Assembly (NCBI GenBank): GCA_965216655.1
Contig: CBDCGP010000056.1
Span: 68,782-132,781 of the forward strand
Origin: Acidimicrobiales bacterium
GTDB taxonomy: Bacteria > Actinomycetota > Acidimicrobiia > Acidimicrobiales > SZUA-35
Direction: 5' to 3'
DNA length: 64,000 nucleotides
Below, in pieces: positions 6,760-63,515 of this stretch; position 1 is the stretch's first letter; the number at the start of each line of letters is the position of its first letter. Made by a program: the position numbers and the translations under genes. The notes under the pieces were generated by a model. It searched no databases, was not told the origin of the DNA, and saw only the letters and a program-made list of their open reading frames with translations.

Positions 6760-8468
6760 CGGCTGCGCTCGAACCGGTCGAGTGCGGCGCGGAGGTCGTC
6801 GACGGTGCCGCCTTCCCCGACCAGCGCCGTCAACCGGGACCGGAAGCGATCGGCGTCGGCGTCCAACAGCGTATCGATCCGGTTGAGCAGCATCCGTTGT
6901 GCCTCGGCGGCCAGCTCCCGTACCGCCTGCTCGCCGAACAAGGCGCTGAGCAGGGTCTGGGAGATCCCCGCCGTTCCGGCACCGATGGCCACCTCCGCCC
7001 CGGTGAGACCTGCGGTCTGGGCGAAGATGACGAGCATCAGGGCGATACCAACGCTGTTGACACCGACGGCCAGGACCCGGGCGGTGGTTCGCTTGCTGGC
7101 CCCCTGCTCACGCACGAGTTCGAGGATGTCGTCCTGCCAGCCCTGGACCTCGGCGCCGACGCGGTCCCGAAAGGCGTCGGACGCCTGCTCCAACGTGCGG
7201 TCGTCGTCGAGCGCCTGTCGACCGCCGGGCAGGGTTCTCCAGGTCGTCGCGGTGGTCGAGGCGGCCCGGTCGGCGTGATCGATCAGCAGTTGTTCAAGGG
7301 TCGACGTGATCTCTCCCTGGACCTCCATCGTCTGGCCGGTCCGACCGGTGAGGAATGCGCCCAGCCGGTCCCTGATGAGTGAGATTCGTGACTGAACCGC
7401 TCGCATCAGCTCGGCCGTGCCGATGAGTTCCTGCCACCGCTCCAGCACCTCACCGCGGAGCAAGGTGCCCGAGCGGATGTCGGCGGCCAGCCGGCTGCGG
7501 GTGTCGTCGTAGGCCTGCTCGGTCGCTCCGAGGAGCTCGGACACGGCGCCCATCTGCTCGTCGCCGGCACTGATCACGACGTTCGTTCTCGGCCCGATGC
7601 TGTCCATCGCGCCGTCGAGCGTCCGCCGCACCACCTCGGACCGGCGTTCCGCATCGGTGGCCAGGCCGGTCAACAAACCGGTAAGGTCGGCGACGGCGTC
7701 CTCCGGCAGGGTCGTGACCTCGCCCGGTTGTTGTTCGATGGGGAACACGGCCACGTCGGTCAAGCCGGCGTCGGCCAGCATCGACGAGAAGTGTGACACG
7801 ATCTCACTGGTCGAGCCCGGTGGGATCCGGTTCACGATGCAGGCCAACGACGTGCCCCGGCTTTCGGCCTGCCGCAGGAAGTCCCAGGGAACGGCATCCG
7901 CGTAGCGAACGGCCGTGGTGGCGAACAGCCACAGATCGGCGGCCGACAGCAGCTGGGTCGCGAGCTCTCTGTTGGCTTCGGAGACCGAGTCGATGTCCGG
8001 AGCGTCGATCAGCGCCAGACCAGGTTGCAGCGAGTCGGTCGTGACCATGCGGAGGACCGTGCCGGTCGTGGTCGCCCCACCGCCGTTTCGACCGGTCACC
8101 CGCGGCAGGTCGGGGAGGACGTCGCCTCCCGCGAACCACTCGTTGTCGAAGGGGTTGCAGACGAGCACGGGAGAACGGGTCGTCGGGCGCAGGACGCCGG
8201 CCGGCGAGATCTCCTGGCCGACGATCGAGTTGGTGATCGTCGACTTGCCGGATCCGGTCGAGCCTCCGAGCACGACGAGCAGCGGTGCGTCGAGCCGTCG
8301 GAGCCTGGGAACGAGATAGTCGTCGATCTGGTGGGCCAACTCGTCGCGGACTCGCCGGGCCGACCTCACCGACCCGACGTCCAATTCCAGCGCTGTCGCC
8401 CGTAGTGTCTGGCCGAGTCCCTCGAGCTCTTCGGCTGTTTCCAGAGGGTTTGGTGACATCAGACTCAC
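6756..8468 (-). CDS. Dynamin-like/HSR1-type GTPase (paralogous partner)
   Basis: P-loop VLGGSTGSGKSTITNSIVG, ALIDAPDID, IVNRIPPG. Long helical stalk region. Hydrophobic segment VLAVGVNSVGIALMLVIFAQTAGL near the C-terminus. Confidence 0.8.
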   Translation of the reverse strand: MSLMSPNPLETAEELEGLGQTLRATALELDVGSVRSARRVRDELAHQIDDYLVPRLRRLDAPLLVVLGGSTGSGKSTITNSIVGQEISPAGVLRPTTRSPVLVCNPFDNEWFAGGDVLPDLPRVTGRNGGGATTTGTVLRMVTTDSLQPGLALIDAPDIDSVSEANRELATQLLSAADLWLFATTAVRYADAVPWDFLRQAESRGTSLACIVNRIPPGSTSEIVSHFSSMLADAGLTDVAVFPIEQQPGEVTTLPEDAVADLTGLLTGLATDAERRSEVVRRTLDGAMDSIGPRTNVVISAGDEQMGAVSELLGATEQAYDDTRSRLAADIRSGTLLRGEVLERWQELIGTAELMRAVQSRISLIRDRLGAFLTGRTGQTMEVQGEITSTLEQLLIDHADRAASTTATTWRTLPGGRQALDDDRTLEQASDAFRDRVGAEVQGWQDDILELVREQGASKRTTARVLAVGVNSVGIALMLVIFAQTAGLTGAEVAIGAGTAGISQTLLSALFGEQAVRELAAEAQRMLLNRIDTLLDADADRFRSRLTALVGEGGTVDDLRAALDRFERSR

Positions 8469-29354: not shown

Positions 29355-29807
29355 GTGGGGATCGACGGCAATCTCGACAATGACGTGATACGGGCCGCAG
29401 GTTGCCTCGTCTACCGCGCCACGCCCGAAGGTCTCGAGGTGCTGGTCGTCCACCGTCCTCGCTACGACGACTGGGATCTCCCGAAGGGGAAACGGGAGCC
29501 TGATGAATCTGATCTCGAGTGCGCAGTCCGGGAGACCGAGGAGGAGTCGGGATTCCGGGGTGAGATCGAGGCCGAATTGGCCGCCGATTCCTACCGTGTT
29601 CGGGGGCGGGACAAGGTCGTCCGCTGGTTCTTGATGCGGTGCACAGGCGGTTCGTTTCAGCCCAATGACGAGGTCGACGAGATCAGGTGGCTGGATCCCG
29701 CAGAGGCCCAGGAAATCCTTTCCTACGGCCACGCCCGTTCGCTGGTCGAGGCACTACCGGGTGTTGCCGGCTCTACGAGTCCTCGAACTTGTAACCGACG
29801 CCCCTGA
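29355..29807 (+). CDS. NUDIX hydrolase
   Basis: Nudix box GKREPDESDLECAVRETEEESG. The 3' end overlaps the convergent response-regulator gene by 35 nt. Confidence 0.85.
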   Translation: MGIDGNLDNDVIRAAGCLVYRATPEGLEVLVVHRPRYDDWDLPKGKREPDESDLECAVRETEEESGFRGEIEAELAADSYRVRGRDKVVRWFLMRCTGGSFQPNDEVDEIRWLDPAEAQEILSYGHARSLVEALPGVAGSTSPRTCNRRP

Positions 29808-30474
29808 CCGTGATGATCAGGTCCGGGTTGGACGAGTCGGTTTCGATCTTGGATCGTAGGCGCTTGATGTGTACGTCGAGCGTCTTCGTGTCGCCCACGT
29901 AGTCGAAGCCCCAGACCCGGTCGATCAATTCATCGCGACGAACGACGTAGCCGGCATTGGCCATGAGATGGCTCAGCAGCTGGAACTCCTTGAGCGGCAT
30001 GGGCACCTGGGTGCCTCGAACCCACACCTCGTGACGAAGCGGATCCAGCCGCACAGGACCGGCGGTGATGCCCTCGTCGGGTTGAGAGGGAGGCGCCGTC
30101 GGAGTCGAGCGACCTCGCCGCAGTGCCGAACGCATGCGAGCCACCAGCTCGCGAATACGGTAGGGCTTGGTGATGTAGTCGTCGGCCCCCACCTCGAGGG
30201 CGACGACGGTATCGACCTCCTCCGATCGAGCCGACACCATGATGATCGGCGTGTCGGAGACCGAGCGGATGCTGCGGCAGACGTCGATCCCGCTCATGGC
30301 CGGCAGCATCACGTCTAGCAGGACGATGTCGAAAGACTTGCTGGAGAACAACTCGAGGGCGTCCTCCCCATCGGCGGCCGTCGTCACCTCAAACCCCTCG
30401 GTGGCCAGGGCCTGACGAAGCGCAAGCAGGAACGACGGTTCGTCGTCCACCACCAGAACCGAGATCCGACTCAC
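29773..30474 (-). CDS. OmpR/PhoB-family response regulator
   Basis: Receiver domain VLVVDDE...DIVLLDVMLP, plus a winged-helix output (LKEFQLLSHLM...VWGFDYVGDTKTLDVHIKRLRSKIE...ITVRGVGYKF). GTG start overlaps the kinase stop (GTGA at 30471-30474). Confidence 0.9.
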   Translation of the reverse strand: MSRISVLVVDDEPSFLLALRQALATEGFEVTTAADGEDALELFSSKSFDIVLLDVMLPAMSGIDVCRSIRSVSDTPIIMVSARSEEVDTVVALEVGADDYITKPYRIRELVARMRSALRRGRSTPTAPPSQPDEGITAGPVRLDPLRHEVWVRGTQVPMPLKEFQLLSHLMANAGYVVRRDELIDRVWGFDYVGDTKTLDVHIKRLRSKIETDSSNPDLIITVRGVGYKFEDS

Positions 30475-31985
30475 GATTCGCCGACCCCGTCGACGTCGGC
30501 CGGTTCGTCGTCGGTCTCGATTGGCAGCTGTACGACAAATGTCGATCCCTCGCCGAGCTTCGAGTCGACGATGACGTGGCCCCCATGGTTCTCGGCGACA
30601 TGACGGACAATGGAGAGCCCGAGACCCGTGCCGCCGGTCTTGCGGCTGCGGGCCGGGTCGACCCGGTAGAACCGTTCGAAGATACGCTCCAGTTCGGGAC
30701 GGGCGATCCCAACGCCGGAATCGGCAACAGCGAGGTCGACAGTCGGGCCCATCGGGCTCACCGTCAACCTGATCTCCGAGTTCTTCGGGCTATACCTGAT
30801 TGCGTTGTCCAGGAGGTTCACCAGAGCCCGAACCAGCTGGCGCTGCTCGCCCCGCACCGTGACGTCGCTCGGGATTCCGGCGATCGTGACGGTGAGGCCG
30901 GAGGCGTGGGCCAGCCCCGACACGATGTCCATAGCCTGCCGCGCCACGTCGTCCACGGCGACGCTGCTGTACTCTTCGCGGTCGGCGCTTGGTGGCTCCT
31001 CCAAGCGGGCCAGTTCCAGAAGGTCGTCGATAATGGCATCGATCCGGCCGACCTCGCGACCTATCTGGCCGACGATCTCGGCTCCGGTGTTGTCGTCGGA
31101 TTCGGCGTCGTCACCGGTCGTAACGGTGCCGACCAGCGCCTCGGCCAACAGGGCGATAGCGGCCACAGGAGTCTTGAGTTCGTGGCTCACGTTGGCCACG
31201 AAATCGCGCCGGGTGACGTCGATCCGACGTTCCTCGGCCAGCCGGTCGATCACGGCCAGACCTCGAGCCGGCCTGGCCACCGCATCGTCGCCGGCCTCCT
31301 GCCGAGCCCGTTCGGCTGCGACCTGTTCCGGGGTCCAACCGTCGACAATGTACCGGATACGTTCGCCCATGTTCTCGGCGTGATCGCCGATGCGTTCGTA
31401 GAACCGTCCGATCAGTGCCAGCTGCAGTGTCTGGTGGGGGTGGAGAACCACCTGTTGAGACTTGGTGATGACGGTGGTGATGTAGGTCTTGTGGAGTTCA
31501 TCGAGGACATCGTCGAGCTGGTCGATCGCGGCCGCCTTCGCTCCGTCGAGCTCACGGTAGGCCTCCGCCGCCTTGCGGAACAGGAACGCGGCCTGGGCCG
31601 CCATCTGCAGGATGAGTGCTCGGATGTCGTCATCGGTCTTGGTCCCTTGAAGGCGCCCGACGGCTTTGGCGATGTTCGTCGTGAGATCGCCTGATCGCTC
31701 GATATCGCTGTTCATGTGCAGGGCGGCGACGATCGCTCGCAGGTCGCTCGCCACCGGCTGCTCGCGGAGCAGGATCTCGATACAGAGCTGTTCGGCGTTT
31801 CTCGACATCAGGTCGAGTTCGTCGTCCTCGGCGATCAGGGTGTCGGCGCGCCCCACATCACGTTCCAGTAACGCGGCGGTGACCTCATCGATACGATCGG
31901 ACACGATCTCAGACATCTCCAGCAGGATGCCTCGGACCTTGCTCAGGCGTTCATCGAGTTCGGATCGGACGTGGGTGTGGGCCAT
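30471..31985 (-). CDS. Cytoplasmic sensor histidine kinase with an N-terminal PhoU domain (PhoU-HisKA-HATPase_c)
   Basis: Start at ATG 31985, with AGGAGC 8 nt upstream. N-terminal ~215 aa carry two PhoU repeats (NSDIERSGD; GRFYERIGDHAENM). H-box FVANVSHELKTP, N-box NLLDNAIRYS, G1 DSGVGI, G2 GGTGLGLSIV. No hydrophobic helix is seen in the trimmed protein. Confidence 0.8.
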   Translation of the reverse strand: MAHTHVRSELDERLSKVRGILLEMSEIVSDRIDEVTAALLERDVGRADTLIAEDDELDLMSRNAEQLCIEILLREQPVASDLRAIVAALHMNSDIERSGDLTTNIAKAVGRLQGTKTDDDIRALILQMAAQAAFLFRKAAEAYRELDGAKAAAIDQLDDVLDELHKTYITTVITKSQQVVLHPHQTLQLALIGRFYERIGDHAENMGERIRYIVDGWTPEQVAAERARQEAGDDAVARPARGLAVIDRLAEERRIDVTRRDFVANVSHELKTPVAAIALLAEALVGTVTTGDDAESDDNTGAEIVGQIGREVGRIDAIIDDLLELARLEEPPSADREEYSSVAVDDVARQAMDIVSGLAHASGLTVTIAGIPSDVTVRGEQRQLVRALVNLLDNAIRYSPKNSEIRLTVSPMGPTVDLAVADSGVGIARPELERIFERFYRVDPARSRKTGGTGLGLSIVRHVAENHGGHVIVDSKLGEGSTFVVQLPIETDDEPADVDGVGES

Positions 31986-32046
31986 AGTTGGGTTGCTCCT
32001 ACCGCTAGACCGTATGGCGCAAGCCAAAAATGTGCCTGCCACCAAG

Positions 32047-32063
32047 ATTAACGGTAGGTGAAC
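32047..32063 (-). promoter_or_regulatory. PHO-box-like pair of direct repeats upstream of the kinase gene
   Basis: The minus strand reads GTTCACctaccGTTAAT, two hexamers 11 nt apart, about 60-80 nt upstream of ATG 31985. Confidence 0.35.
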
Positions 32064-32142: not shown

Positions 32143-33969
32143 CTAGCTCCCGACGATGCCGCCGTCCTTCCGTCGCAGGACGAACGTGCAATCCCGGGGC
32201 ACGGTGACACCGTCGGGAACGGCGTTCATCACGGGGAAGTTGGTGAGCGTCGGATCGCCGTTACCCGGGTGCTGGGTGTTGGCGAACAGCACCCGCCGGT
32301 CCGGGGTGACGGTGAGCCCGGTGATCTCGTCCGAGGTGACGCCGGTCAGCAGGCGGCGCAGGTCGCCCGAGGCCGGATCGGCGACCAGCATCTGGTTGTT
32401 GAGGTCATCCTTCTGTCCGCCGTCGGTCTGGATGAAGATGCGACCGTCGGGATCGGCCCAGAGGCCATCGGGATCCGAGAACGTGTCCTCGGTGCCGTGG
32501 GTGTCGCCGGCGATGATGAAGATGTCCCATTCGAAACCGGTTCCGACGTGGCGGTCGGTGTCGACCCACCGGATGATGTGCCCGTCGGGGTTCGGCGCCA
32601 GCGGGTTGGCGGCGTCGGCTTCGGTCCGACGCGAGTTGTTGGTCAACGTGCAGTACACGGTGCCGTCAGGAGCGACGGTGGTCCACTCCGGTCGATCCAT
32701 AGGCGTGGCCCCGAGGATGTCGGCGGCGAGCCGGGCGTAGGTCAGCACCTCGGCCTGATCGGCGAAGCGAGCGGCCAGCGCCGGGTTGTCGATGGTCAGC
32801 TCGAGCCATTGTCCGGTACCGTCGTCGTCGAATCGGGCCACGTACAGGCGGCCCTCGTCGAGCGGGCTCTTGCCCCGGGCCAGCATCGACCTGTAGTTGG
32901 AATCGGAAACGAACTTGTAGATGTAGTCGAACCGTTGGTCGTCGCCCATGTAGGCAACGATGCGGCCACCACGGCCCACGGCGAAGGCCACGCCTTCGTG
33001 CTTGAACCTACCCATGGCCGTTCGCTTCACGGGTGTTGCCTGCGGCATCATGGGATCGATCTCGACACACCAGCCGAAACGGTTGTGCTCGCCGGCATAG
33101 TCGGCGTTCGACAGATCGAAACGGGGATCAAAGTTCTCCCAGCCGTAGCCGAATCCGCTGTCGGTGAAGCCGTAGCGCTCCTGATCCTCGGTCGGTGTCC
33201 ATTCGCCGGTCGAACCGAAGTAGCCGTTGAAGTTCTCCTCGCAGGTCACGTAGGTGCCCCACGGGGTGTACCCGCTCGAGCAGTTGTTGACGGTGCCGAA
33301 CGACGGTCGGGCCGGATCCCCGAGGAGGGGATGCCCGGCGGCCGGTCCCGAGAAGGTGACCGGCGTGTTGACGTGGATGCGACGGTTGAGTCGGTCCCGG
33401 ATCACCTGCCATCGGCCGTTGCGTTCGGCCACCTCGACGACCGAGACACCATGGGCGGCCTGGGACAGTCGGACGTCCTCCAGCGACTCGGGGGCGTCCT
33501 TGCCGTACACGTGGGTGTTGCGTCCGAACTCGTGGTTGATGCAGATCACGCCGTGGTCACGGCCGAGCGGGTAGTACCACATGCCGTCGTGCCCGATGCC
33601 GATCTGCTTCTCCTGATCGACGGCGGACTTCGAGCCGTTCACGTGCTCCGGGTAGGGGGCGAGGATCGGCTCACCCCACGGGATGAGAACCTGGTATTCG
33701 TAGTCCGACGAGATGGCCGGAAGCGGGCCGGTTCCGGCGGCGACCGGGACGGGAGTGAAACCGACGAGCGGGTTCCGCTTGTTCCTTCCCCGGGAACGTT
33801 CTGCCCGGTACTGTCCGGTCAACGCGCCGGCTGATCCGGCGGAGAAGAAGACGGTGGCACCGGTGGCCAGACTTCCGCCGAGAACCTTCCGGCGGGAGAT
33901 CCTGGCGTTCAGCACCTTCTCGAACGGTCGATTGGGAGATGGGTTCGTCGCTTGTTCGTCGACTGGCAT
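32143..33969 (-). CDS. phoX: PhoX-family (DUF839) alkaline phosphatase with a Tat signal
   Basis: Tat motif ISRRKVLGGSLATGATVFF; beta-propeller-type body with NRFGWCVEIDP and GDDQRFDYIYKFVS. AGGAGG RBS lies upstream. Confidence 0.85.
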   Translation of the reverse strand: MPVDEQATNPSPNRPFEKVLNARISRRKVLGGSLATGATVFFSAGSAGALTGQYRAERSRGRNKRNPLVGFTPVPVAAGTGPLPAISSDYEYQVLIPWGEPILAPYPEHVNGSKSAVDQEKQIGIGHDGMWYYPLGRDHGVICINHEFGRNTHVYGKDAPESLEDVRLSQAAHGVSVVEVAERNGRWQVIRDRLNRRIHVNTPVTFSGPAAGHPLLGDPARPSFGTVNNCSSGYTPWGTYVTCEENFNGYFGSTGEWTPTEDQERYGFTDSGFGYGWENFDPRFDLSNADYAGEHNRFGWCVEIDPMMPQATPVKRTAMGRFKHEGVAFAVGRGGRIVAYMGDDQRFDYIYKFVSDSNYRSMLARGKSPLDEGRLYVARFDDDGTGQWLELTIDNPALAARFADQAEVLTYARLAADILGATPMDRPEWTTVAPDGTVYCTLTNNSRRTEADAANPLAPNPDGHIIRWVDTDRHVGTGFEWDIFIIAGDTHGTEDTFSDPDGLWADPDGRIFIQTDGGQKDDLNNQMLVADPASGDLRRLLTGVTSDEITGLTVTPDRRVLFANTQHPGNGDPTLTNFPVMNAVPDGVTVPRDCTFVLRRKDGGIVGS

Positions 33970-34094
33970 GTAGTCCTCCTGGGTTCACGTAGCGTCACGA
34001 GTGGACGGTAAACAAGCCGGTTGTCCGCTCGGTTTCACCCAGGTGGACGGGTCGTTGCCATTGCCTGAAACCTCTGTCGGCGGACGGCGAAAAC

Positions 34095-34133
34095 GTTCAC
34101 CTGTCGTTCATCTTGGTTCTCACTGCGGGTCAC
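34095..34133 (+). promoter_or_regulatory. PHO-box-like array of four phased direct repeats in the phoX/pstS divergent region
   Basis: GTTCAC (34095), GTTCAT (34106), GTTCTC (34116) and GGTCAC (34128) have 10-12 nt spacing and lie ~95-135 nt upstream of the pstS ATG. Confidence 0.5.
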
Positions 34134-34228
34134 CGGCGACTCGTATCGTCGGAGTTGTCCAGCTGGGAGAGGTCCGGCGGGCCGTGTCCCAGGGAGGGAC
34201 GCGAAGCACAACCAACGGAGATCAACGC

Positions 34229-35356
34229 ATGAAGCAACTGATCAAACTGATCGCTCTGGGCATTGTCTTTGCCCTGATCGCGGCGTCTTGTGGTGACGAC
34301 TCGGATACCGAGGCCGGTCCCGAGACCACAGCGCCGCCCGCTGCCGAGGAGACCGAGGAGCCGGCAGAGGCCGAAGAAGATGAGGCCGAGGATGAAGCCA
34401 TGGAGGACGAGGAAGATGCCATGGAGGAAGACTCCGAGATGACCGACATGGGTCTTCCGGTCGTCGACCCACTTTCGGTCGACGCTGGTGATGTCGCCAT
34501 CGCCGGTTCGTCCACCGTGTTCCCGCTCTCGACCGCCGTGCTGTCACAGTGGATCGACGAGGGCGGCCCGGAGTACTCGATCGACTCAATCGGCTCCGGT
34601 GGTGGTTTCGAGCGGTTCTGCGTCGAAGGCGCTTCCGACATATCCAACGCCTCCCGTCCGATCAAGGACGAGGAATTCGCCGCCTGTACGGAGACCTGGG
34701 GCGACGAGCCCATCGAAATCCGCGTCGGTACCGACGCGCTCTCGGTGGTCATCTCCAACGGCAACTACTTCGCCTCCGAGCTGACCATCGAAGAGCTCAA
34801 CACCGCCTTCGCACTGGCCGACTCCGGCGCCACCTGGTCCGATGTGAATCCCGATTTCCCGGCTCACCCCATCGTGCTCTACAGCCCCGGCGAGGATTCC
34901 GGCACCTTCGACTACTTCAACGAGGTCGTGTTCGAGGAAGCCGAGCCGTCGCCGATCTCCTCGTCGATCGCCGAGATCGTCGGTGAGGACGACAACGTGA
35001 CCGTGCGTGGTGTGGCCGACGACGGCTGTACCGAAGGCGATCTCAGCACCAGCTGCGCCATCGGCTACTTCGGCTACGCCTTCTTCCAGCAGAACGCCGG
35101 CGAACTGGTCGCCGTGTCGGTCGACGGCGTCGAGCCCAACGCCGAAACGGTCGACGCCGCCGAGTACCCGCTGGCCCGTCCGCTCTACATGTACACCGCC
35201 CCCAGCATCGTGGCCGAGAAGCCGCAGGTGGCGCAGTTCATCGCCTACTACTTGAACAACGTCAACGACGTCATCGGTGAGGTCGGCTACTTCCCGGCGC
35301 CGGCCGACGCGTTGCAGGGCGCAGCCGACAACATCAGCGCCGCCGCCGGATTCTGA
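34229..35356 (+). CDS. pstS: Phosphate ABC transporter substrate-binding lipoprotein
   Basis: Start trimmed to ATG 34229. Signal peptide MKQLIKLIALGIVFALIAASCG with a lipobox. PBP body with IAGSSTVFPL, IGSGGGFERF and PLARPLYMY. Confidence 0.9.
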   Translation: MKQLIKLIALGIVFALIAASCGDDSDTEAGPETTAPPAAEETEEPAEAEEDEAEDEAMEDEEDAMEEDSEMTDMGLPVVDPLSVDAGDVAIAGSSTVFPLSTAVLSQWIDEGGPEYSIDSIGSGGGFERFCVEGASDISNASRPIKDEEFAACTETWGDEPIEIRVGTDALSVVISNGNYFASELTIEELNTAFALADSGATWSDVNPDFPAHPIVLYSPGEDSGTFDYFNEVVFEEAEPSPISSSIAEIVGEDDNVTVRGVADDGCTEGDLSTSCAIGYFGYAFFQQNAGELVAVSVDGVEPNAETVDAAEYPLARPLYMYTAPSIVAEKPQVAQFIAYYLNNVNDVIGEVGYFPAPADALQGAADNISAAAGF

Positions 35357-35391: not shown

Positions 35392-35424
35392 GTGGCCCGG
35401 CCTCAGATTGTGCGGCCGGGCCAC
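35392..35424 (+). terminator. Strong intra-operon hairpin between pstS and pstC
   Basis: GTGGCCCGGCC (35392-35402) and GGCCGGGCCAC (35414-35424) form a perfect 11-bp stem with an 11-nt loop. No U-tract follows. Confidence 0.5.
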
Positions 35425-35488
35425 AGCCCCGAAACAACACAGTGACAGGAACAGGCGACCCGGCAACGTACGAGGTGGACACCGAACA

Positions 35489-36466
35489 ATGACGACTTCC
35501 ATGCCCGACGCGCAGGCTGAGCGTGCCGCCATCGCGGCCTCGTTGACGAAGAAGTCCCGTCCGGGTGAATCGGTCATCCGGGCCCTACTCTTCGTTTGCG
35601 GGGCCATATCGGTCGCCACCACGCTCGGTATTCTCTACGAACTGGGCAAGGAAGCCCTACTCTTTTTCCGCGACGACCGGGTGTCGATCGCCGAGTTTCT
35701 GACCGGCACCACCTGGCAACCTCAAGCGGGATCGTTCGGCATCTGGGCCCTCATCCTCTCGACGCTCTACATCGCCCTCATCGCCATGCTGGTGGCCGTG
35801 CCCATGGGATTGGCGTCGGCCATCTACCTCTCGGAATACGCATCCGAACGGGCGCGGTCCATACTGAAACCGCTCCTGGAGGTTCTGGTCGGCATCCCCA
35901 CCGTCGTCTACGGGTTCTTCGCCCTGACGTTCATGACCCCGGTGCTTCGCTCGCTGTTCGGTTCCACCGTCGGCTTCTTCAATATCGCGTCGGCCGGAAT
36001 AGTGGTCGGCATCCTCATCGTCCCGCTGGTCAGTTCACTGTCCGAAGACGCCCTCCACGCGGTTCCCGACGCGCTGCGCCAGGCGGCCTACGGGATGGGA
36101 GCCACGAAACTGGAGGTCTCGCTCCGGATCGTTGTTCCCGGCGCACTGTCGGGCATAGCGGCGGCCGTCGTCGTGGCGTTGTCGAGGGCGGTCGGCGAGA
36201 CGATGGTGGTCGCCCTGGCCGCCGGTGCGTCTCCCCGCAACTTCACACTGGGCGAGGACTCCGTGTTCGGCTACATCCTCAACCCGTTCATCGGCGGTGA
36301 GGCCATGACCGGTCACATCGTCCGCATTTCGAGCGGCGACCTCAGCTACAACACCATCGACTACAACTCGATCTTCTCCATCGGCCTGACGTTGTTCTTC
36401 ATGACGCTGATCCTCAACATCATCAGCCGCCGCCTGGTGAGACGCTTCCGGGAGGAGTACGAGTAA
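35489..36466 (+). CDS. pstC: Phosphate ABC transporter permease
   Basis: Start trimmed to ATG 35489, with GAGGTGG upstream. Polytopic, with the EAA-type loop LSEDALHAVPDALRQAAYGMGATKLE. Confidence 0.9.
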   Translation: MTTSMPDAQAERAAIAASLTKKSRPGESVIRALLFVCGAISVATTLGILYELGKEALLFFRDDRVSIAEFLTGTTWQPQAGSFGIWALILSTLYIALIAMLVAVPMGLASAIYLSEYASERARSILKPLLEVLVGIPTVVYGFFALTFMTPVLRSLFGSTVGFFNIASAGIVVGILIVPLVSSLSEDALHAVPDALRQAAYGMGATKLEVSLRIVVPGALSGIAAAVVVALSRAVGETMVVALAAGASPRNFTLGEDSVFGYILNPFIGGEAMTGHIVRISSGDLSYNTIDYNSIFSIGLTLFFMTLILNIISRRLVRRFREEYE

Positions 36467-36567: not shown

Positions 36568-36614
36568 TGGCTGCCGTCGTGCCGGAGATCCGACAAATCG
36601 AGGTGGACGAATAA
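36567..36614 (+). CDS. Mini-ORF 2 (15 codons), TAATG-coupled on both sides
   Basis: Hand translation gives MAAVVPEIRQIEVDE. Its stop overlaps the pstA ATG (TAATG at 36612-36616). Confidence 0.25.
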   Translation: MAAVVPEIRQIEVDE

Positions 36615-38044
36615 TGGCTGTTGACGCGCCGGAGCGGTCCACCGAGCTGCCCGGGCCGGGCGGCCAGGATTGGTTCCCCGACGAAGCCGAATTCGACCGG
36701 CTCCTCAACCGCCGGACCCGGAAGGCGCAGATGAGCCAGCTCGCCTTCCTCTCGGCGCTCGTCGTCGCCGTGCTGGCCCTTGCGACCCTGCTCTACACCA
36801 TCATCAACGACGCCTTCGGCCTGGTTGCCATCGTCAACGAGAACAACCCCGAAGAGGTCGTGGCCGAAGCGGGCTATGATCCTGCGACCGTCGATCTCGA
36901 GGATCTGACCCGGGACCAACTCGTGACGCTGCTCGAGGGCGCGGTGTCCCGCAATGTGGGGCGGCGCCTCGAACGGGAGCAGCGTTTCTACGACGACCGC
37001 TATGTGTTCGAGGATCCGGCCGTCTACGAGGAGCTGTGCGCCTCGGACGACCCGGTCGACGGATGCGGTCTCGGGGCCCGCGACAAGGCGAACGTCTTCG
37101 CCCTCGTCCAAGAGCGGGTTGTCGTCCCGGATGTGATCGCAGCCGAGGAGTTGGTGCCGTCGCTGCTGGCCCCCGACGCCTTCGAGGAGGACGTCCTCCA
37201 GGCCTTCGTCGACTCACCGGAACGATTCCCCGACTACACGGCCGACCAGGTCCGGTTCGAGTGGCGTTCGTGGGTGTCGACCGCGTTCCTCCGTACGCCG
37301 GCCAGTGCCACACCGGAGGTTGCCGGTATCCGCACGGCCGCGCTGGGAACACTGTGGATCGCTGTCATCACGATCCTGTTCGCCGTGCCGGTCGGTGTGG
37401 GCGCCGCCGTGTATCTGGTCGAGTTCGCAAAGCCCTCCCGCTTCAACGATTTCATCCAGACCAACATCAACAATCTGGCCGGCGTGCCGTCGGTCATCTA
37501 CGGCATGCTCGGCCTGGCCGTGCTGGTGAGAACGTTCGAGCCGGTGACGTCCGGTGATGTGTTCACCTCGGGTCCGCCGCCGTCCGAGAACGGCCGAACC
37601 GTTCTGGCGGCCGGCATCACGCTGGGGTTGCTCGTGCTGCCGATCATCATCATTTCCGCCCAGGAGGCGTTGAAGGCCGTCCCCAATTCGCTTCGGCAGG
37701 CCGGAATGGGTCTCGGGGCCACGAAATGGCAGACGGTCCGCAGCCAGGTTTTGCCGGTCGCGCTTCCCGGCATCCTCACCGGTGTGATCCTGTCCGTGGC
37801 CCGGGCCATCGGTGAGACGGCTCCCCTGATCGTCGTCGGCGCCGCAAGTTTCATCACCGCCGACCCGTCGGGCCCGTTCTCGAAGTACACGGCCATGCCG
37901 ATTCAGATCTTCCAGTGGACCAGCCTGCCCCAGGCCGAATGGCGTCACCTTGCGGCCGCCGCCATCATCGTCCTGTTGGTGATCCTGCTCGTCCTGAACG
38001 CAACGGCCGTCATCTTGAGAAACCGCTATTCGAGAAGAGTATGA
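36614..38044 (+). CDS. pstA: Phosphate ABC transporter permease, long form with an N-terminal extension
   Basis: 476 aa. One N-terminal TM helix and a ~170-aa extracytoplasmic insert, then a PstA core with SAQEALKAVPNSLRQAGMGLGATKWQ. Confidence 0.9.
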   Translation: MAVDAPERSTELPGPGGQDWFPDEAEFDRLLNRRTRKAQMSQLAFLSALVVAVLALATLLYTIINDAFGLVAIVNENNPEEVVAEAGYDPATVDLEDLTRDQLVTLLEGAVSRNVGRRLEREQRFYDDRYVFEDPAVYEELCASDDPVDGCGLGARDKANVFALVQERVVVPDVIAAEELVPSLLAPDAFEEDVLQAFVDSPERFPDYTADQVRFEWRSWVSTAFLRTPASATPEVAGIRTAALGTLWIAVITILFAVPVGVGAAVYLVEFAKPSRFNDFIQTNINNLAGVPSVIYGMLGLAVLVRTFEPVTSGDVFTSGPPPSENGRTVLAAGITLGLLVLPIIIISAQEALKAVPNSLRQAGMGLGATKWQTVRSQVLPVALPGILTGVILSVARAIGETAPLIVVGAASFITADPSGPFSKYTAMPIQIFQWTSLPQAEWRHLAAAAIIVLLVILLVLNATAVILRNRYSRRV

Positions 38045-38047
38045 GAG

Positions 38048-38977
38048 ATGAGCGTGAACGAAACCATGACCGGCAATACAACGAGCGGGAAAGCGAATGC
38101 CATGACCTCCGATGAGCAGAAGCCGGGCCTGAAGATGCCGGCTATCGATCTCACGGAGAGTGGTAGGGTCTCTGATATGGGCTCGACGGATCTCGAGACG
38201 ATCATTTCGACCGAGGACATGGACGTCTACTACGGCGATTTTCGTGCGGTGCGGAACATCACCATGAACTACGCCGACAACGAGATCACGGCGCTCATCG
38301 GGCCCTCCGGCTGCGGCAAATCGACCGTCCTCCGAGCGTTGAACCGGATGAACGACCTCATCCCCACGGCCAGGGTCACCGGTGCCGTGAACTATCATGG
38401 CCGCAACATCTATGAGTCGAACGTGGATCCGGTCGAGATCCGGCGTCGGATAGGCATGGTCTTCCAGAAGCCGAACCCGTTCCCCAAGTCGATCTTCGAC
38501 AATGTGGCCTGGGGGGCCAAGATCAACGGGTTCAAGGGCTCGAAGTCGGACCTGTCGGACCTGGTCCAACGAGCGCTGACCAAGGCCGCATTGTGGGATG
38601 AGGTCAAAGACAAGCTGAACGAGAGCGGCTACTCGCTTTCGGGAGGTCAGCAGCAGCGGCTCTGTATCGCCCGGGCGGTGGCTCCCAGCCCCGATGTCCT
38701 GTTGATGGACGAGCCGTGTTCGGCCCTCGATCCGATCGCCACGTTGCGGATCGAGGAACTGATGCTCGAACTCAAGCAGGACTACACGATCATCATCGTC
38801 ACCCACAACATGCAACAGGCGGCCCGAGTCTCCGACAAGACAGCCTTCCTGTCCGTCGACGTCAACGACAGAGGCCAGCGAACCGGTCGGCTGGTCGAAT
38901 ACGCCCCGACGGACCGGATTTTCACCTCCCCCGAAAACGACGAAACCGAGCAATACATCACCGGCCGGTTCGGATAG
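38048..38977 (+). CDS. pstB: Phosphate ABC transporter ATP-binding protein
   Basis: Walker [10 protein letters not shown], signature LSGGQQQRL, Walker [14 protein letters not shown]-loop VTHNMQQA. The true start may be an internal Met because the N-terminus is ~45 aa longer than usual. Confidence 0.9.
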
Positions 38978-38983
38978 GTCGGC

Positions 38984-39667
38984 ATGACTGATCAGCGAAG
39001 TCATTTCCACCACGAGATCGAGGGGCTCGAGACATCGATTCGCGAGGTCGCGGAGCGTGCTGAGCGTATGGTCGGCACGGCCGTCGATGCCCTGCTCTCG
39101 ACCGACGACGACATGGCCACTGCAGTGATCCAGGAGGGAGCTCGGCTGGCCGAGGTTTACGTCGACATTCACAGTCGGTGGCTGAACTTGATGGCACTGC
39201 AGCAACCGATGGGCAGCGATCTGCGCACCCTATCGGCGCTCCTTCATCTCAACGTAACGCTGGAGCGAACAGCGGCGCAGTGTGTGAATATCGCGAAGCT
39301 GGCCGGTCTCGCCGCCGGCCTCCCGAGAAGCGACCGGATACGTCGTCAGGTCGAGGAGATGGCCGACCTCGTCCGTCCCATGATTCGGTTGGCTGTGCGG
39401 GCGTTCGAGCATCGTGACGCCGACGAGGCCCGCCTGCTGCCCGCCATGGACGAACCGGTCGATCGGATCAACCGGGCCATGTACCGGGAGGTCGTCGCCT
39501 GCGCTCCCGATGAGCGCCTCGTCGAATGGGCTACGCACATGATGATGGCGGCTCGTGCCTTGGAGCGGATCGGCGACCAGGCAGTCGACATCGGCGAACA
39601 AGTTGCGTTCCTCGACACCGGGGACTATCACGGCTTTGCGGAAGACGGCATCACCAACCGTCGTTAG
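38984..39667 (+). CDS. phoU: Phosphate-signalling accessory protein PhoU (stand-alone)
   Basis: 227 aa with two PhoU repeats (LNVTLERTAAQCVNI; ARALERIGDQAVDIGEQV), directly after pstB. Confidence 0.9.
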   Translation: MTDQRSHFHHEIEGLETSIREVAERAERMVGTAVDALLSTDDDMATAVIQEGARLAEVYVDIHSRWLNLMALQQPMGSDLRTLSALLHLNVTLERTAAQCVNIAKLAGLAAGLPRSDRIRRQVEEMADLVRPMIRLAVRAFEHRDADEARLLPAMDEPVDRINRAMYREVVACAPDERLVEWATHMMMAARALERIGDQAVDIGEQVAFLDTGDYHGFAEDGITNRR

Positions 39668-58800: not shown

Positions 58801-59132
58801 CAGCTTTCGAAGCCTCGGCGATGAGCGACGTGAACCTTCGCTGCATGAGCCGGCTCTCCGGAATCGACTGGGAGAGCGGGGCGCCGCCGACTGGCCCGCC
58901 GCCGGCTGCAACGCACCTCATCGAGCGGGCGGGGCAACTCTCCGATCCTCTCGTTGAACTGGAGGCGCGCCGGGTGGTTGCCGCTTGCCTGAGCCAGAAC
59001 GGTGACTACGCCGACGCAATCCCTCGACCGGCACGTCGAACGCTCACTCGACGCGTTGCACCCTACCATCGAGGAAAACTCGTTGGCACTACGCCATACC
59101 CGAGTCTGTTGGCCACGCTACCGATTGTCTGA
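55880..59132 (+). pseudogene. AfsR-like regulator (SARP wHTH + BTAD + P-loop NTPase + TPR), readable only through about seven +1 frameshifts
   Basis: wHTH ISVQLLGGFTIR...LLAYLVMNRHRPQTRDLLAGRFW. BTAD YPGDLLAGHYDDWIEAER...VMRLCALLGQPAAAERQY. P-loop LIEGDPGIGKSRL, Walker B LVVLEDVHWCDD. TPR-like repeats continue in successive frames. Breaks near 56281, 57858, 58237, 58604, 58749, 58774 and 58843. Confidence 0.75.
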
Positions 59133-59510
59133 TCGGTGCCGAGCCTGCGACGCTAATCCGGCGAACTTGACCTGACCGCTTGGGCGCAGTACTCAGCAAT
59201 CGGGCCGTAAACTTCCGCGCATATACCGGAATCCGCGACCTTGGTTTCCTGCCCGCTTGGCGTGCAGGCTGCATCTATCGATCCGCGGGTCGTGACGAGG
59301 ATGCAGCCGACCAGTGCGCCCTGGCCGTTCAATCTGCTCAATTCGAATCTCGATCGGTGTCGAGAGCTGAACGGGCTGCCGCTCGCGTCGGTTGCCGGCC
59401 GCAGTTCGCCGTCGATAGCCGAGGAATATGAGCGGTATCACCCTCGCGTGGTTGAGGCCAGACTCACCGTCGAATCGGCTCTTACTGGTCGTACCACTCA
59501 GATCGGATGA

Positions 59511-59867
59511 GTACACGAGGTCGTCGCCTGGACGGCGTCCGATCCGGACGACTGGAGGGTTGAAGACGCGGCGGAAAGGCGTCAGCGACGTGTGCTGAGG
59601 CTCTGCGAGAGGGCTCAGGAGCAGGGCGCATTGGCCTGAGTTCACGATCTGTCCGAAGTGCTCGGGGTCAGCGAACGGACGGTAAAGCGGGATTTGGCCG
59701 AGCTCAGACTCGACGGAGGAGAAGCCGACAACCCGACGATCAGTGTGACAGGTAGATCGATCTCGAAGTTTCTTGCGGCACGAACCGGCTACAAATCCCC
59801 AGGTCAGAGGCTATTCGGGCGCGTTGTCCCCATAGTTTGGCCTCAAACTTTCACCAAGACTGGATAG
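59511..59867 (+). pseudogene. Small HTH regulator relic with an in-frame TGA
   Basis: ...ERRQRRVLRLCERAQEQGALA-TGA(59637-59639)-VHDLSEVLGVSERTVKRDLAEL. The stop falls just upstream of a helix-turn-helix motif (HDLSEVLGVSERTVKRDL). Confidence 0.5.
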
Positions 59868-59957
59868 GACAGGACAGAGACGGCGGGGACACACTTGGGA
59901 CATCAGCTTGATCAACAAGCTACCTCAGTCGTCGTCAAGCGTGTTGGAGTTATTGTA

Positions 59958-60053
59958 ATGTCTCGTCGCCTGTTTGTCCTCCTGTCGCCAGTCGTCTTTG
60001 CTGCCGCCACCGCTCTTCCTGTCGTGAGCGCCGTGGCCTGGGAGTTCGGCTGA
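59958..60053 (+). CDS. 31-codon signal-peptide-like ORF (absent from the ORF track)
   Basis: GGAG (59946-59949) lies 8 nt before the ATG. Hand translation gives MSRRLFVLLSPVVFAAATALPVVSAVAWEFG. A hairpin follows 15 nt downstream. Confidence 0.3.
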   Translation: MSRRLFVLLSPVVFAAATALPVVSAVAWEFG

Positions 60054-60067
60054 TCCCCGTTCGAGGT

Positions 60068-60101
60068 CCTTCTCAGTCCTCTTCCGCCGTGGCTGAGAAG
60101 G
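60068..60101 (+). terminator. Hairpin downstream of the 31-codon ORF
   Basis: CCTTCTCAG (60068-60076) pairs with CTGAGAAGG (60093-60101): a perfect 9-bp stem with a 16-nt loop. Confidence 0.4.
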
Positions 60102-60130
60102 ATCTTCCTGCTGACATGGTTAGCAGGGCA

Positions 60131-60181
60131 CCAGGGTGTGACCGTCGCAGAATCCTAGCGCTGCGACGGTTACACCCTTGG
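60131..60181. repeat. About 20-bp imperfect inverted repeat (long hairpin)
   Basis: CCAGGGTGTGACCGTCGCAG (60131-60150), 10-nt loop, CTGCGACGGTTACACCCTTGG (60161-60181). The core 13-bp stem has one mismatch. Confidence 0.6.
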
Positions 60182-60402
60182 TTTCACATAGAAACTCACC
60201 GCTCATCCCTCCATTCTCCTGAGAGTGCGTGAGATCCGAGGCTTCCTCAGACCCACGGTCTTTACCCCACCGCCTTTTGATCGGGGCGATGCCACCGGGG
60301 GATGGGGAAGTACTCGGTTTTGGCCGCCGTTGATGTGGACAGGTGATTCGGCCGGATTCAGCGTGGCGACCGAGTGGCGACGCGCTAGGATGAAGATCCC
60401 AA

Positions 60403-60476
<74 letters not shown>

Positions 60477-60492
60477 CTAGAGCTTTTCGGAA

Positions 60493-60515
60493 GATCCCGC
60501 TCTCAGAGCGGGATC
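60493..60515 (+). terminator. Hairpin immediately downstream of the tRNA
   Basis: GATCCCGCTC-tca-GAGCGGGATC: perfect 10-bp inverted repeat, extendable with one mismatch to 60489-60519. Confidence 0.5.
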
Positions 60516-61216
60516 CTCCGCGCCTCGTCGGCTCTGCCGACTCATGACACGTCGGGCGACGCCGTTGGTTGTCTGCGGGCGGAGTGTCCTTCCAGGAATC
60601 TCGAGTCAGCCGTCCGGCTCAACGTCACGCTTTGTTGCTGGAGTACGCCCGAAGTCAGTCAGTGACATCGACTCACGTTCGCTCCGTTCGCGATAGCTCC
60701 CTACATCCTCGATCATGCTGCCGCCCCTTCGGCTGCCTCTCGGTCGGCCGGCTGTGGTCAGGGTCAACAGAAGCATGATCTCGAGAGGGAGTGCCTCCCG
60801 AGGGGTGTTATGTCATGTGAGAAACCATGAAACTCCACCTCGGGAGGTCCTCCTCGTGGACGCCGCCCCGGCGATACGATCTAGATTGACGATCCAAACT
60901 CCTGACGCCTGGTTGGAAGAGGTCATAGCCAGGATTCCGATAGCCCACATCGCTGCTGAGACTGTTATTCGGTAGGCCACGGAAATGCTCTCTGACACTC
61001 TGGCCATCAATCTTTGACCACGTATGTCCCAGAACTGTCCCAGTGTCGAAAACCGGGCGCTGGCCTTGAGTATCTGCAGCGGGTCAGACGATCTACAGCT
61101 CGGCAGCGGTCGGCTCTCTGGCGGCGGTGGGTGACCGATGCCACGCTATAGTGAGCCACCGGCGGCGGAGACTGGTGGTTCCAGAGTGGTGATGCGAATC
61201 GGCGGGTTCGGAGATT

Positions 61217-63416
61217 TTGGTGGCATCTGAGAGGGACATCGTCGAGATTCGTGCGTTCGGCAAGTGGCTGATCAGCGTCAATGGTGTCGAGGCTCCTTCA
61301 GTCCAATCCCGTTTTGCTCGACAGATCCTCGTCGCTCTTTCTTTGACAAGTGGATGGATCGCGCGTGAAAAGTTGATCGATGACTTGTGGTCATCGTCTT
61401 CCGATATCGGGATGTCACGACGTCGACTCTCGAAGGAATTGTCGCGCATACAGGGCTGCATTGGCATCCGGCTGTGGTCAGGAGATCGCGAGAGTGTGCG
61501 AGTTGATCCAGGTGTTCACCTTGTCAGCGACGTCAGCGTGTTGATCGACGACCTCGGCGCCGCGCCGCCATCCGCGGATCCCGTCCGCGAAGCGGCACGT
61601 CTCCAGGAGCACGTGCGAGTCGTGGAGCGCGGTATGTTGCTGCCGGGACACTTCGACCCGTGGACCTGCGATCTGCGCAGTCGAGTCGAACAGTTGGAAA
61701 TAGGAATTCGCCGATCGTTGGTCGAGCTTCTGGGGCGTTGCGGACGGCCTGACCGCGTTGAGGCACGCCCGTCGGTGGGCGGAGCTCGACTCGTTCTCGG
61801 ACGAGGCGCACGCCACCGTCATCCACCTCACACGGCTCTACGTCGGATCGGCGGCGGCCCGATCAGTACCAGGCGCAAGCAGAAGAGCTGTACCGGACGG
61901 AGTTGGAGGTCGACCCTGCGGGCCGGTTCGATGCTTCACCGACGACTGCACTGGTTGCGCTCAAAGAATGTGAGGAGCCGTTGCTTCCGGCCAAGGTGCG
62001 CCGACTCAAACAGAAGTTGGAGGGTTGCGACATGAAACCTCCAGACCGGATAGCGCTCGTACTTGAGTTGGATGACACTCTGCGATGGATTGGTCACCAC
62101 CACGAACGGGCAAAGTTTCTGTCGGTTCTCGAAGATCAAGACGTTGCTCTCGACGTCAGGGGCTGGCGTGAGGTAGAGGTGGCGACCGTTGCTGGGGAGC
62201 TGCAAAGAGCGCGTGCACTCACCGAAGAGATCCGGATGATAGAAGGGTCGACCGACCGTACTTCGGCTTCGATGCTCGATCTGATGGAAGCGCTCCGACT
62301 TCATGCGACGGGGAAAGGACAGGCGGGCGATCGAGATTTTGGAGTCCGTGGTCACGGGCCGACACGTCATTGACCGTCGAGACCGAGGCCCGGCAACTGA
62401 TGGCGTCGATCTACGATGCCTTGGGGAAAGTGGATGTTGCCCGCGAGCACGCCGTAACTGCGCTGGAAGGGGTTCTTCGGGGGGAACTACACGAATACGA
62501 GTCCAGCGCACTCGCCTCGCTTAGCTTCGCACTTGCCCGCGGTATCCATGCGGCCGAAGCGGAACTCCACGCCGAGCGTGCTCTCGAGTTGGCCAGGGAA
62601 TCAGGAAGTGATCGCGACCTCGGTGCCGTCAACCATGCGTTGGCCTACGTCCACTACATCAGTCGGCGTTTTACGACCTCGTATTCGTACGCAACGGCCG
62701 CTGCCGACATCTATCGGCGATCCGGCAATGTGCATCTGCTTGCGAGATCGGCCCACTGCGCAGGCTTGTCGGCACGGGTCTATGGGGATCTTGATGGCAT
62801 GGGGTATCACGTCGATGCGCTACGTTCCTTGGGTGAGGCATCGGCACTCCCGATCATTCAGGTTCGGACGGAGATCCTTGAGGCCTGCATCAGTTTCGGA
62901 CGACGTAGTTTTGAACAGTCGGCGATCCATCTCGAGAAGGCACTCGAACTGCTCTGCGGTACGGAGTTGGAGCTGTGGCGGATCTATACAACCTCGATGT
63001 TGATCCGTAGCAAGCTTCAGATGAATCAACAACACGAAGCGCTCCAACTGGCAGAAGCCAATGTAGTGAGAGCGCACAAAGTTGGGCTTCCTCCCCGACA
63101 GGTGGAATTGTTTGAAGGTGATCTTGGCTGCGCGCTCGTTGCCACCGGCGATGTACGCCGCGGCTTTGATGTGCTCAACGGAATACTCGGTCACGGCAAC
63201 CCAAGCCAGATTCTGTTCGCTCATCCACATGTGTTCCGATTCGAGGCAGCCCGATCCCTCGGGGATACCGAGACGGCCACCGCAACGCAGCGGACCGCTT
63301 GGCTCATGCTCGACACGCTGCGGAAAGATCTCACTCCAGGCCAATGGGATCTGGCCAGACGCAACTCGGAGTTCGTGCGACCGTTGCTGGCCATCGTGGA
63401 CGATGACCCGATGTGA
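61217..63416 (+). pseudogene. SARP-type regulator (wHTH + BTAD + TPR, no P-loop), readable only through four +1 frameshifts
   Basis: wHTH VEIRAFGKWLISVNG...ILVALSLTSGWIAREKLIDDLW. BTAD MLLPGHFDPWTCDLRSRVEQLEIGIRRSLVELLG / VADGLTALRHARRWAELDSFSDEAHATVIHL / PDQYQAQAEELYRTELEVDP. TPR continues to 63416. Breaks near 61736, 61857, 62326 and 62370. Confidence 0.7.
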
Positions 63417-63515
63417 CACAGAGTAGGCGCAGCGATCCGAGGTTGCTCAAGGTCGACTGCCAGTCGTGCCGATAGGCCTCTTGAACCCGAGGGTCGATTG
63501 TCGGCGAGGTCTTTC

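Follow-up and report, generated by a model that had tools for sequence, protein, structure and literature searches.

The means by which the Pho system perceives phosphate have been in question for decades, and it is disputed whether PhoU relays the activity of the transporter or itself binds intracellular inorganic phosphate (Pi). The subject here is a gene in which PhoU and a sensor kinase form a single polypeptide: a PhoU-HisKA-HATPase_c fusion encoded at 30471..31985 on the minus strand of a 64-kb stretch of DNA from an Acidimicrobiales bacterium (contig CBDCGP010000056.1, positions 68,782 to 132,781), referred to below, at its full length, as the window. Among the closest described systems is SenX3-RegX3 of Mycobacterium smegmatis and M. 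tuberculosis, which works with PhoU1 and PhoU2 and comes from the same phylum (PMC12301784). There, as at this locus, a HisKA kinase and an OmpR-family regulator stand over pst and phosphatase genes, and alpha6 of PhoU carries the motif RxxERxxD(R/H); PhoU is the negative input and a soluble kinase is sufficient, as would be the case here. In M. smegmatis, a truncated soluble SenX3 still senses phosphate, with both membrane anchoring and Pst dispensable, and purified PhoU1 together with Pi suffices to shift SenX3 from kinase to phosphatase; the alpha6 RxxERxxD(R/H) has been proposed as the Pi site of PhoU (PMC12301784).

The PhoR-PhoB system of E. coli and Salmonella follows a seven-component logic that can be recognized at this locus as well, with pstSCAB-phoU, a PhoU that acts negatively on the kinase, PHO boxes, and autoregulation (PMC4423584, PMC9239213, PMC13577022). 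Streptomyces PhoR-PhoP shares with it a phoU beside the two-component genes and a PHO box for the PhoP regulator made of 11-nt direct repeats with GTTCACC (PMC4415409, PMC2275107), the sequence described as the PHO-box core of S. coelicolor (PMC4415409). The system in the window belongs with these as a PhoR/SenX3-PhoU-like phosphate two-component system, and its covalent PhoU-kinase form is a new variant. No description of a PhoU-kinase fusion was found in the literature searched, including a 2026 survey of the PhoU family, with most subscription journals out of reach; domain-architecture databases surely list the combination.

An earlier note, made from the sequence alone, had read this open reading frame (ORF) as a PhoU-HisKA-HATPase fusion of about 504 amino acids (aa), the first 215 or so being two PhoU repeats. 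Profile searches with Pfam and NCBIfam bear this out. The coding sequence comprises 504 aa plus the stop, and in the product of 30474-31985(-), Pfam places PhoU (PF01895) in two stretches (E 2.5e-32, 111.5 bits against a cut-off of 23.5), HisKA at residues 259-330 (E 1.3e-16, 60.8 bits), and HATPase_c at residues 380-490 (E 1e-29, 103.7 bits). The NCBIfam model phoU_full (TIGR02135) matches residues 9-216 with 151.9 bits, above its cut-off of 130.25. The PhoU module, residues 1-216 (31338..31985, minus strand), is thus delimited by TIGR02135 as well as by matches in the PDB and an AlphaFold2 (AF2) model, and consists of two three-helix repeats. Unlike a stand-alone PhoU of ~210-240 aa, it makes up the first 216 of the 504 residues of a kinase. 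Next comes a linker, residues 217-241 (31263..31337, minus strand), which is made of PhoU's own C-terminal tail, GWTPEQVAAERARQ, and then a variable stretch. The vestige of a last PAS beta-strand (RGLAVID) and the DHp/HisKA domain follow at 30996..31262 on the same strand, as delimited by alignment and the HisKA match, with the phospho-acceptor His268 in the H-box SHELKTP (31182-31184, minus strand). The catalytic ATP-binding (CA) domain, at 30516..30968 (minus strand), contains NLLDNAIRYS (N box), DSGVGI (G1), an F-box, and GGTGLGLSIV (G2).

The AF2 model predicts with high confidence that the PhoU module folds as a six-helix bundle over residues 2-215, with helices at 2-41, 44-74, 79-111, 119-145, 148-177, and 183-215 (pLDDT mostly 83-95). 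Beyond it lie a tail helix (219-230), a low-confidence segment (232-241), the DHp helices (242-289 and 298-329), and the CA domain (340-490). The protein matches the solved PhoU structures 4q25 (E 5.4e-25), 1xwm, 1t72, and 2i0m in sequence, and in the PDB comparison, no solved chain covers both the PhoU and the kinase halves. The characteristic PhoU motifs are D94-I-E-R-S-G-D100 and R194-F-Y-E-R-I-G-D-H202. In an alignment of the window protein with 19 homologues, the acidic E96-R-S-G-D100 of alpha3 and E197-R-I-G-D201 of alpha6 are invariant in all 20 family members, as are SHELKTP, NLLDNAIRYS, DSGVGI, FERFYRVD, GGTGLGLSIV, and the H-E-x-x-T motif beside the phospho-acceptor histidine. The putative Pi site of alpha6, here R194-F-Y-E-R-I-G-D-H202, is invariant in these 20 proteins and kept in unfused orthologues, and the PhoU core motifs in general are equally conserved in the two groups. 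By these motifs, the PhoU module is intact, and the kinase half is an intact bifunctional-type HisKA kinase.

What the protein lacks is equally telling. The 504 aa contain no transmembrane (TM) helix, the top KD19 window (1.61) being the amphipathic DHp helix after the H-box; no fused homologue examined has a TM segment either, while most of the unfused neighbour kinases have one. Pfam finds no PAS domain in the product, and the distance from the end of PhoU to the H-box is only ~50 aa, which leaves no room for one. Of the PAS domain, only the last strand (RGLAVID) is left; the FGPP-containing PAS of the unfused kinases is gone. The absence of a hydrophobic helix and of a PAS-like segment, as first noticed, therefore stands, and the ORF is confirmed as encoding a predicted soluble PhoU-HisKA-HATPase_c protein without TM anchor or PAS. 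It fails the defining features of PhoR and SenX3, namely the TM anchor, the PAS domain, and the equivalog score. The top NCBIfam models for the kinase half are PnpS and PhoR, which cover only residues ~243-488 and all remain under their cut-offs; the two PhoR models, TIGR02966 (219 bits against 334) and NF008235 (142 against 390), align over the C-terminal half only.

For the ORF that stops at 30471, two starts come into question, GTG 32210 (giving 579 aa) and ATG 31985 (giving 504 aa), and the only TM-like stretch of the longer version is within the upstream extension. The longer ORF was rejected on several grounds. Its extension has a flat codon-position GC of 0.56/0.65/0.65, against 0.71/0.42/0.80 in the ORF body, and it overlaps the 3' end of phoX. 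All 19 aligned homologues begin 1-20 aa before the conserved 'IRSELDERL'. A PHO box, a -10-like hexamer, and AGGAG fall within the would-be extension, which further supports the shorter reading. The start codon is thus ATG 31985, and no TM helices are added from upstream, in agreement with the first reading. The ribosome-binding site is AGGAGC (31995..32000, minus strand), 9 nt before the ATG; AGGAG is kept in two related loci, L081 and L082.

The origin of the fusion can be traced by comparison of loci. One genome per GTDB species was scanned with tblastn, and 80 loci were returned, all of them labelled Acidimicrobiia or Actinomycetota with the exception of L018. The gene order in the 80 loci is pstS-pstC-pstA-pstB-phoU-kinase-regulator on one strand, with the regulator present after the kinase in 71; most of the others end within ~2 kb downstream of the phoU match. 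A separate phoU ORF is found in 57 loci and a single fused ORF in 20. In most of the 57, the kinase starts within a few nucleotides of the phoU stop, often with a 4-nt overlap. The kinase that directly follows phoU in these unfused Acidimicrobiia is a SenX3-like TM-PAS-DHp-CA protein: most have a strongly hydrophobic N-terminal segment, the PAS carries an FGPP motif, and the H-box is at about residue 150-200. In the 20 fused loci, the H-box comes 51-61 residues after the PhoU module and there is no hydrophobic segment.

Both sides of the junction can be aligned with the parental genes. Unfused PhoU orthologues end in 'GW(L/T)PEhxGAARxxAR' and a variable acidic stretch before the stop, and the fusion carries the same tail after alpha6 (GWTPEQVAAERARQ...). 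On the other side, the sequence 'RGLAVIDxxAEERRIDAxRRDFVANVSHELKTP' of the fusion aligns with the end of the PAS (its final beta-strand) and the beginning of the DHp helix in the unfused kinases. With both sides mapped, the event reads as an in-frame deletion that extends from PhoU's tail across the TM segment and the greater part of the PAS. The sequence comparison thus shows that the fusion derives from neighbouring, translationally coupled genes in an ancestral operon of the order pstSCAB-phoU-kinase-regulator, and that the deletion took the phoU stop codon, the N-terminal membrane segment of the kinase, and nearly all of the PAS.

The family is widespread within narrow limits. A cluster search scored 8000 relatives out of 5.8 billion clusters at 90% identity, and the best 120 of these all have the PhoU+HisKA+HATPase_c architecture, with lengths of 453-516 aa and 54-100% identity. 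They come from many independent assemblies, Mb-scale contigs among them. Database entries that are named carry the title 'phosphate signaling complex protein PhoU [Acidimicrobiales bacterium]' or one like it, which describes half of the protein only. An exhaustive HMMER pass over 1.84 billion representatives at 50% identity, of which the best 150 matches were examined, found about 6-8 fused clusters among the top matches. Three of them (P0121, P0122, and P0125) are built like the window protein; two others, P0126 and P0127, of 577-585 aa, retain a PAS segment between PhoU and HisKA and are the only true PAS-retaining fusions. The rest of the best 150 are ordinary kinases matched over their C-terminal half only. 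Long tblastn spans in L035, L040, L042, and others had also been considered as PhoU-PAS-kinase fusions, and ORF analysis resolved them into a separate phoU and kinase. One further member, P0130, has a single hybrid PhoU repeat in 396 aa and lies on a 3.6-kb NCBI contig; its first ER(x)GD runs straight into the 'GDHAVNIGERV' of the second repeat, with ~100 residues apparently deleted by inter-repeat recombination. It could be a real variant or an assembly collapse.

On named contigs, the fusions all belong to metagenome-assembled genomes (MAGs) labelled Acidimicrobiia, except for one locus labelled Gammaproteobacteria. This is L018 (CAXMSE010000014.1, 7977-9422, 'uncultured Gammaproteobacteria'), whose fusion nests in the main fused clade of Acidimicrobiia; it is probably a mis-binned contig, and horizontal transfer is less likely. 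The fusion family is therefore common in Acidimicrobiia MAGs and phylogenetically compact, as judged from the top matches of the exhaustive representative search; more divergent fusions may occur in other phyla. The spread of the architecture, on which the earlier note took no position, is thereby settled, and the literature searched offered no characterization of the family.

The fusion appears to have happened more than once. In a bootstrapped neighbor-joining tree of concatenated PhoU and DHp-CA sequences (100 replicates), the main fused clade of 23 sequences, including that of the window, was recovered in 99 replicates and a second fused clade (L026, L038, P0125) in all 100; in none were the PAS-less fusions united as one clade. 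The PAS-retaining P0126 and P0127 are placed elsewhere in the tree, beside different unfused groups. Fused kinases nest among the phoU-adjacent unfused kinases, and the orthology of their DHp-CA parts is also seen in the synteny of the 80 loci. In its genomic context, P0126 is found on two independent contigs between pstB and a regulator gene, and P0122 on 11 contigs, ~450 nt downstream of pstSCAB. These sequence data indicate at least two independent PAS-less fusions, and on the simplest reading, there would have been at least two, perhaps four, independent fusions overall. The main fused clade differs from the unfused proteins by fixed changes, R to G110 and Y to Q113 at the end of alpha3 and V to E204 in alpha6 (DHAEN versus DHAVN), with codons at about 31374-31658. 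In the second fused clade, the residues are those of the unfused proteins, which shows that a fusion can do without the changes. The earlier suggestion that the fusion hard-wires a link between PhoU and the kinase holds; the joining arose repeatedly from adjacent, translationally coupled phoU and kinase genes.

The genes around the fusion make up a complete phosphate locus. The kinase stop overlaps the GTG start of an OmpR/PhoB-family response regulator (29773..30474, minus strand; Response_reg and Trans_reg_C), and the GTGA coupling first proposed for the pair is confirmed; against the PhoB model TIGR02154, the regulator scores 210 bits, under the cut-off. Upstream lies the alkaline phosphatase gene phoX (32143..33969, minus strand; PF05787, E 2.3e-139). 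On the plus strand follow pstS (34230..35356; PBP_like_2), which encodes a 375-aa lipoprotein, pstC (35408-36466; BPD_transp_1), pstA (36614-38044; BPD_transp_1), pstB (38048-38977; ABC_tran), and a stand-alone divergent PhoU paralogue of 227 aa (38984..39667). The neighbourhood had been described correctly in the earlier note as to phoX, the opposite orientation of pstSCAB, and the stand-alone phoU at 38984-39667; the start of pstS had to be moved. The mechanical ORF from GTG 34001 (451 aa) is over-extended, and translation really begins at ATG 34230, with the lipoprotein signal MKQLIKLIALGIVFALIAASC after it. A PHO box sits in the falsely 'coding' stretch 34001-34229, and PstS of the relatives L081 and L082 has 375 aa and 369 aa. 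There is no other kinase, regulator, or PhoU in the 64-kb window.

The arrangement differs among close relatives. In L001, whose sequence from PhoU to the H-box is 80% identical, the fused gene has kept its place directly after pstB; in the window, L081 (81%), and L082 (77%), the operon of fused kinase and regulator is transcribed divergently from pstSCAB. Only in the window does phoX lie between the kinase operon and pstS, a position at which it is not found in L081 or L082, so that a phosphatase gene of the Pho regulon seems to have been inserted recently between the divergent promoters.

The stand-alone PhoU is 26% identical to the fused module and has lost part of the PhoU signature: its first motif is degenerate (LERTAAQ), and alpha6 reads ERIGDQ instead of ERIGDH. 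An orthologue in L082 (4599-5285, minus strand) is 74% identical and shares the degenerate motif; in L081, no PhoU follows pstB, the next gene being an MFS transporter. Because the kinase-adjacent phoU of unfused genomes is 38-49% identical to the fused module, the stand-alone protein was rejected as donor: the module came from a PhoU encoded beside the kinase, and the stand-alone protein is a paralogue of its own, which may be specialized for transporter control. Tandem phoU pairs between pstB and the kinase also occur in unfused Acidimicrobiia (29-39% identical to the fused module). In the unfused loci L027, L033, L053, and L058, an extra phoU lies at about 7300-7950, upstream of the match at 8001, and in L034, L039, L052, and L061, there is one downstream of the match. 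Their presence in various unfused loci means that PhoU duplication is common in Acidimicrobiia.

Upstream of the fused gene, the promoter region contains PHO-box-like direct repeats, GTTCACCTACC GTTAATCTTGG (32042..32063, minus strand), 57-78 nt before the kinase ATG. A second PHO box, GTTCACCTGTC GTTCATCTTGG with a third unit TTCTCACTGCG (34095..34127, plus strand), lies between phoX and pstS. The 22-mer pattern GTTCACCnnnnGTTnATCTTGG occurs exactly twice in the 64 kb (32042-32063 on the minus strand and 34095-34116 on the plus strand), where 0 are expected, and the two copies lie upstream of the kinase gene and of pstS and nowhere else in the window. Further GTTCAC-like half-sites were seen at ~33982-34045, near phoX and pstS. 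A -10-like hexamer, TACGGT (TAnnnT; 32009..32014, minus strand), recurs as TAC[GC]GT in the window, L081, and L082; its role as a promoter element is presumptive. In L081 and L082, the PHO box, TAC(G/C)GT, AGGAG, and ATG are kept in register upstream of the fused gene, and inverted copies of the PHO box face pstS. A scan found no sigma-70 consensus promoter, which is uninformative for an activator-dependent actinobacterial promoter and fits one. From these elements, the fused operon is very probably autoregulated and in the Pho regulon.

Away from this locus, the GC content drops from ~0.66 to 0.59-0.61 in the last part of the window (59000-64000), where only short ORFs of weak codon bias are found around a tRNA-Met (60403-60477, plus strand). 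This low-GC region may be an integrated element or island. An Rfam scan of the window returned this one tRNA only and no rRNA.

Taken together, it is probable, though well short of certain, that the fusion is a Pho-regulon sensor kinase that arose by in-frame deletion and uses its PhoU module as an input in cis. The six-helix bundle of PhoU would then be the cis-acting input domain of the kinase. When cytoplasmic phosphate is plentiful, Pi (with metal) would bind to the motifs of alpha3 and alpha6, notably R-x-x-E-R-x-x-D-H at residues 194-202, and push the dimeric kinase to its phosphatase state, as alpha6 runs via the tail into the DHp helix; this continuity is a plausible signal path. When phosphate is scarce, a default kinase state would phosphorylate the co-transcribed OmpR/PhoB-type regulator, which would bind the GTTCACC direct-repeat PHO boxes and activate pstSCAB(-phoU), probably phoX, and its own operon. 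Such Pi-dependent switching between kinase and phosphatase is what we infer for the fusion by analogy. Contact of the PhoU module with PstB could add an input on the state of the transporter and would not be required, and the divergent PhoU after pstB would mainly throttle the transporter.

Several points weigh against this account. In E. coli, Salmonella, and M. smegmatis, PhoU cannot act without the PAS domain of the kinase (PMC4423584, PMC13577022, PMC12301784), and since this domain is absent from the fusion, coupling to the DHp domain must differ from that in the studied systems; it is a conjecture that tethering may replace the docking function of the PAS. The fusion family is known from sequence alone, and Pi binding by PhoU is structurally undemonstrated. 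The AF2 model is monomeric, with low confidence for the linker and DHp (pLDDT 37-68), and is mute on communication between the domains. The tree was built with a simple distance method, and the binding of the regulator to the PHO boxes is a prediction from the DNA sequence. Finally, there is no canonical PhoR or SenX3 within the 64-kb window, though one may be encoded elsewhere in these genomes.

The strongest competitor holds that PhoU docks on PstB and so recruits the soluble kinase to Pst, with the transport cycle of PstB, and not free cytoplasmic phosphate, setting the balance of kinase and phosphatase. Of the 20 fused loci from the GTDB scan, 17 have the fused gene immediately behind pstB, and in the locus of P0122 it follows at ~450 nt; no other phoU was seen in those operons, leaving the fusion as the only pst-linked PhoU. 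E. coli PhoU contacts both PstB and PhoR (PMC4423584), and regulators of the PhoU family tend to pair with a cognate importer (PMC13170248). In the sub-clade of the window, however, the fused operon is detached from pstB, where a different PhoU is found in two of the three genomes and none in the third. Pst is unnecessary for signalling in M. smegmatis, a fellow actinobacterium (PMC12301784), and there are no defined PstB-contact residues to compare. The earlier note had gone further and supposed that phosphate status reaches the kinase by way of contact with the transporter and not via a loop in the periplasm. That supposition is possible but unproven, and the M. smegmatis data favour direct sensing; the contrast itself fails, as canonical PhoR is without a significant periplasmic sensory domain (PMC4415409), and the move of the fused gene away from pstB in the sub-clade of the window also speaks against it. 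Transporter coupling and direct Pi sensing can coexist, so the question is which input dominates, and a dominant role for the transporter seems unlikely on this evidence, if well worth keeping in view.

Much less credible is a PhoU module that serves as a constitutive brake or dimerization scaffold in place of the PAS, the signal coming in trans, be it from the stand-alone PhoU, a metabolite, or cross-talk. The window and L082 do have a second phoU after pstB, and PhoU proteins of S. aureus dimerize and interact mutually (PMC11705898). Most fused loci and L081, however, have no second phoU near the pst operon, and it is the fused module that keeps every conserved PhoU motif and the stand-alone copy that has lost some, whereas a scaffold in decay should present the reverse pattern. 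That the single ORF is an assembly or frameshift artefact, or a pseudogene, joining a separate phoU and kinase is effectively refuted. A one-base error could join the frames of the parental genes, which lie side by side and in many cases overlap by 4 nt, but a frameshift would keep the TM and PAS codons, whereas here ~150 codons are gone and the junction is conserved. The architecture recurs at similar length in every one of the 120 best 90%-identity clusters, conservation along the alignment is strong from end to end, and third-position GC is of coding type throughout the ORF.

With the cis-input kinase as the preferred reading, a broader generalization can be offered tentatively, with rather more doubt than belief. 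PhoU may be a cytoplasmic phosphate receptor that can drive the DHp domain directly, without PAS, membrane, or transporter, and Acidimicrobiia may have exploited this at least twice to make a soluble single-chain sensor kinase. In the sub-clade of the window, the fused copy would signal and the divergent pst-linked copy would throttle transport.

The fusion offers independent evolutionary evidence of the Rosetta-stone type, and recurrent at that, for PhoU acting directly on the kinase. It also suggests that the PAS, essential in every studied system, is dispensable once PhoU is tethered. Since the protein is a soluble single polypeptide, Pi-dependent kinase/phosphatase switching could be reconstituted and structurally solved membrane-free. 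Annotation needs correction too, as proteins recorded as "PhoU" are sensor kinases of Acidimicrobiia. Abundant marine and freshwater members of this class live under chronic phosphate scarcity.

How far the fusion departs from the known systems can be stated for each. In SenX3-RegX3, the PAS of SenX3 is essential for Pi sensing; in the window, PhoU is covalently joined to the kinase, and the TM segment and the PAS are gone but for one strand. In E. coli and Salmonella, PhoR has two TM helices and a PAS on which PhoU docks, and PhoU is a separate protein that bridges PstB and PhoR. Streptomyces also has phoU as a separate gene, which is divergently transcribed, and its PhoR is membrane-anchored. 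For the kinase half, the best NCBIfam model is that of PnpS from Streptococcus pneumoniae (NF046044), with 241 bits over residues 243-488; this is far short of the 400 bits required, the match takes in just 237 of the model's 390 positions, at the C-terminal end, and PnpS is without a PhoU module. The only other PhoU-domain fusion found described in the literature searched is the Na+/phosphate importer NptA of the S. aureus type (PMC13170248). Like the kinase in the window, NptA has a PhoU-like domain, in its case C-terminal, covalently fused to a partner in phosphate homeostasis, but that partner is a membrane transporter and here it is a signalling kinase.

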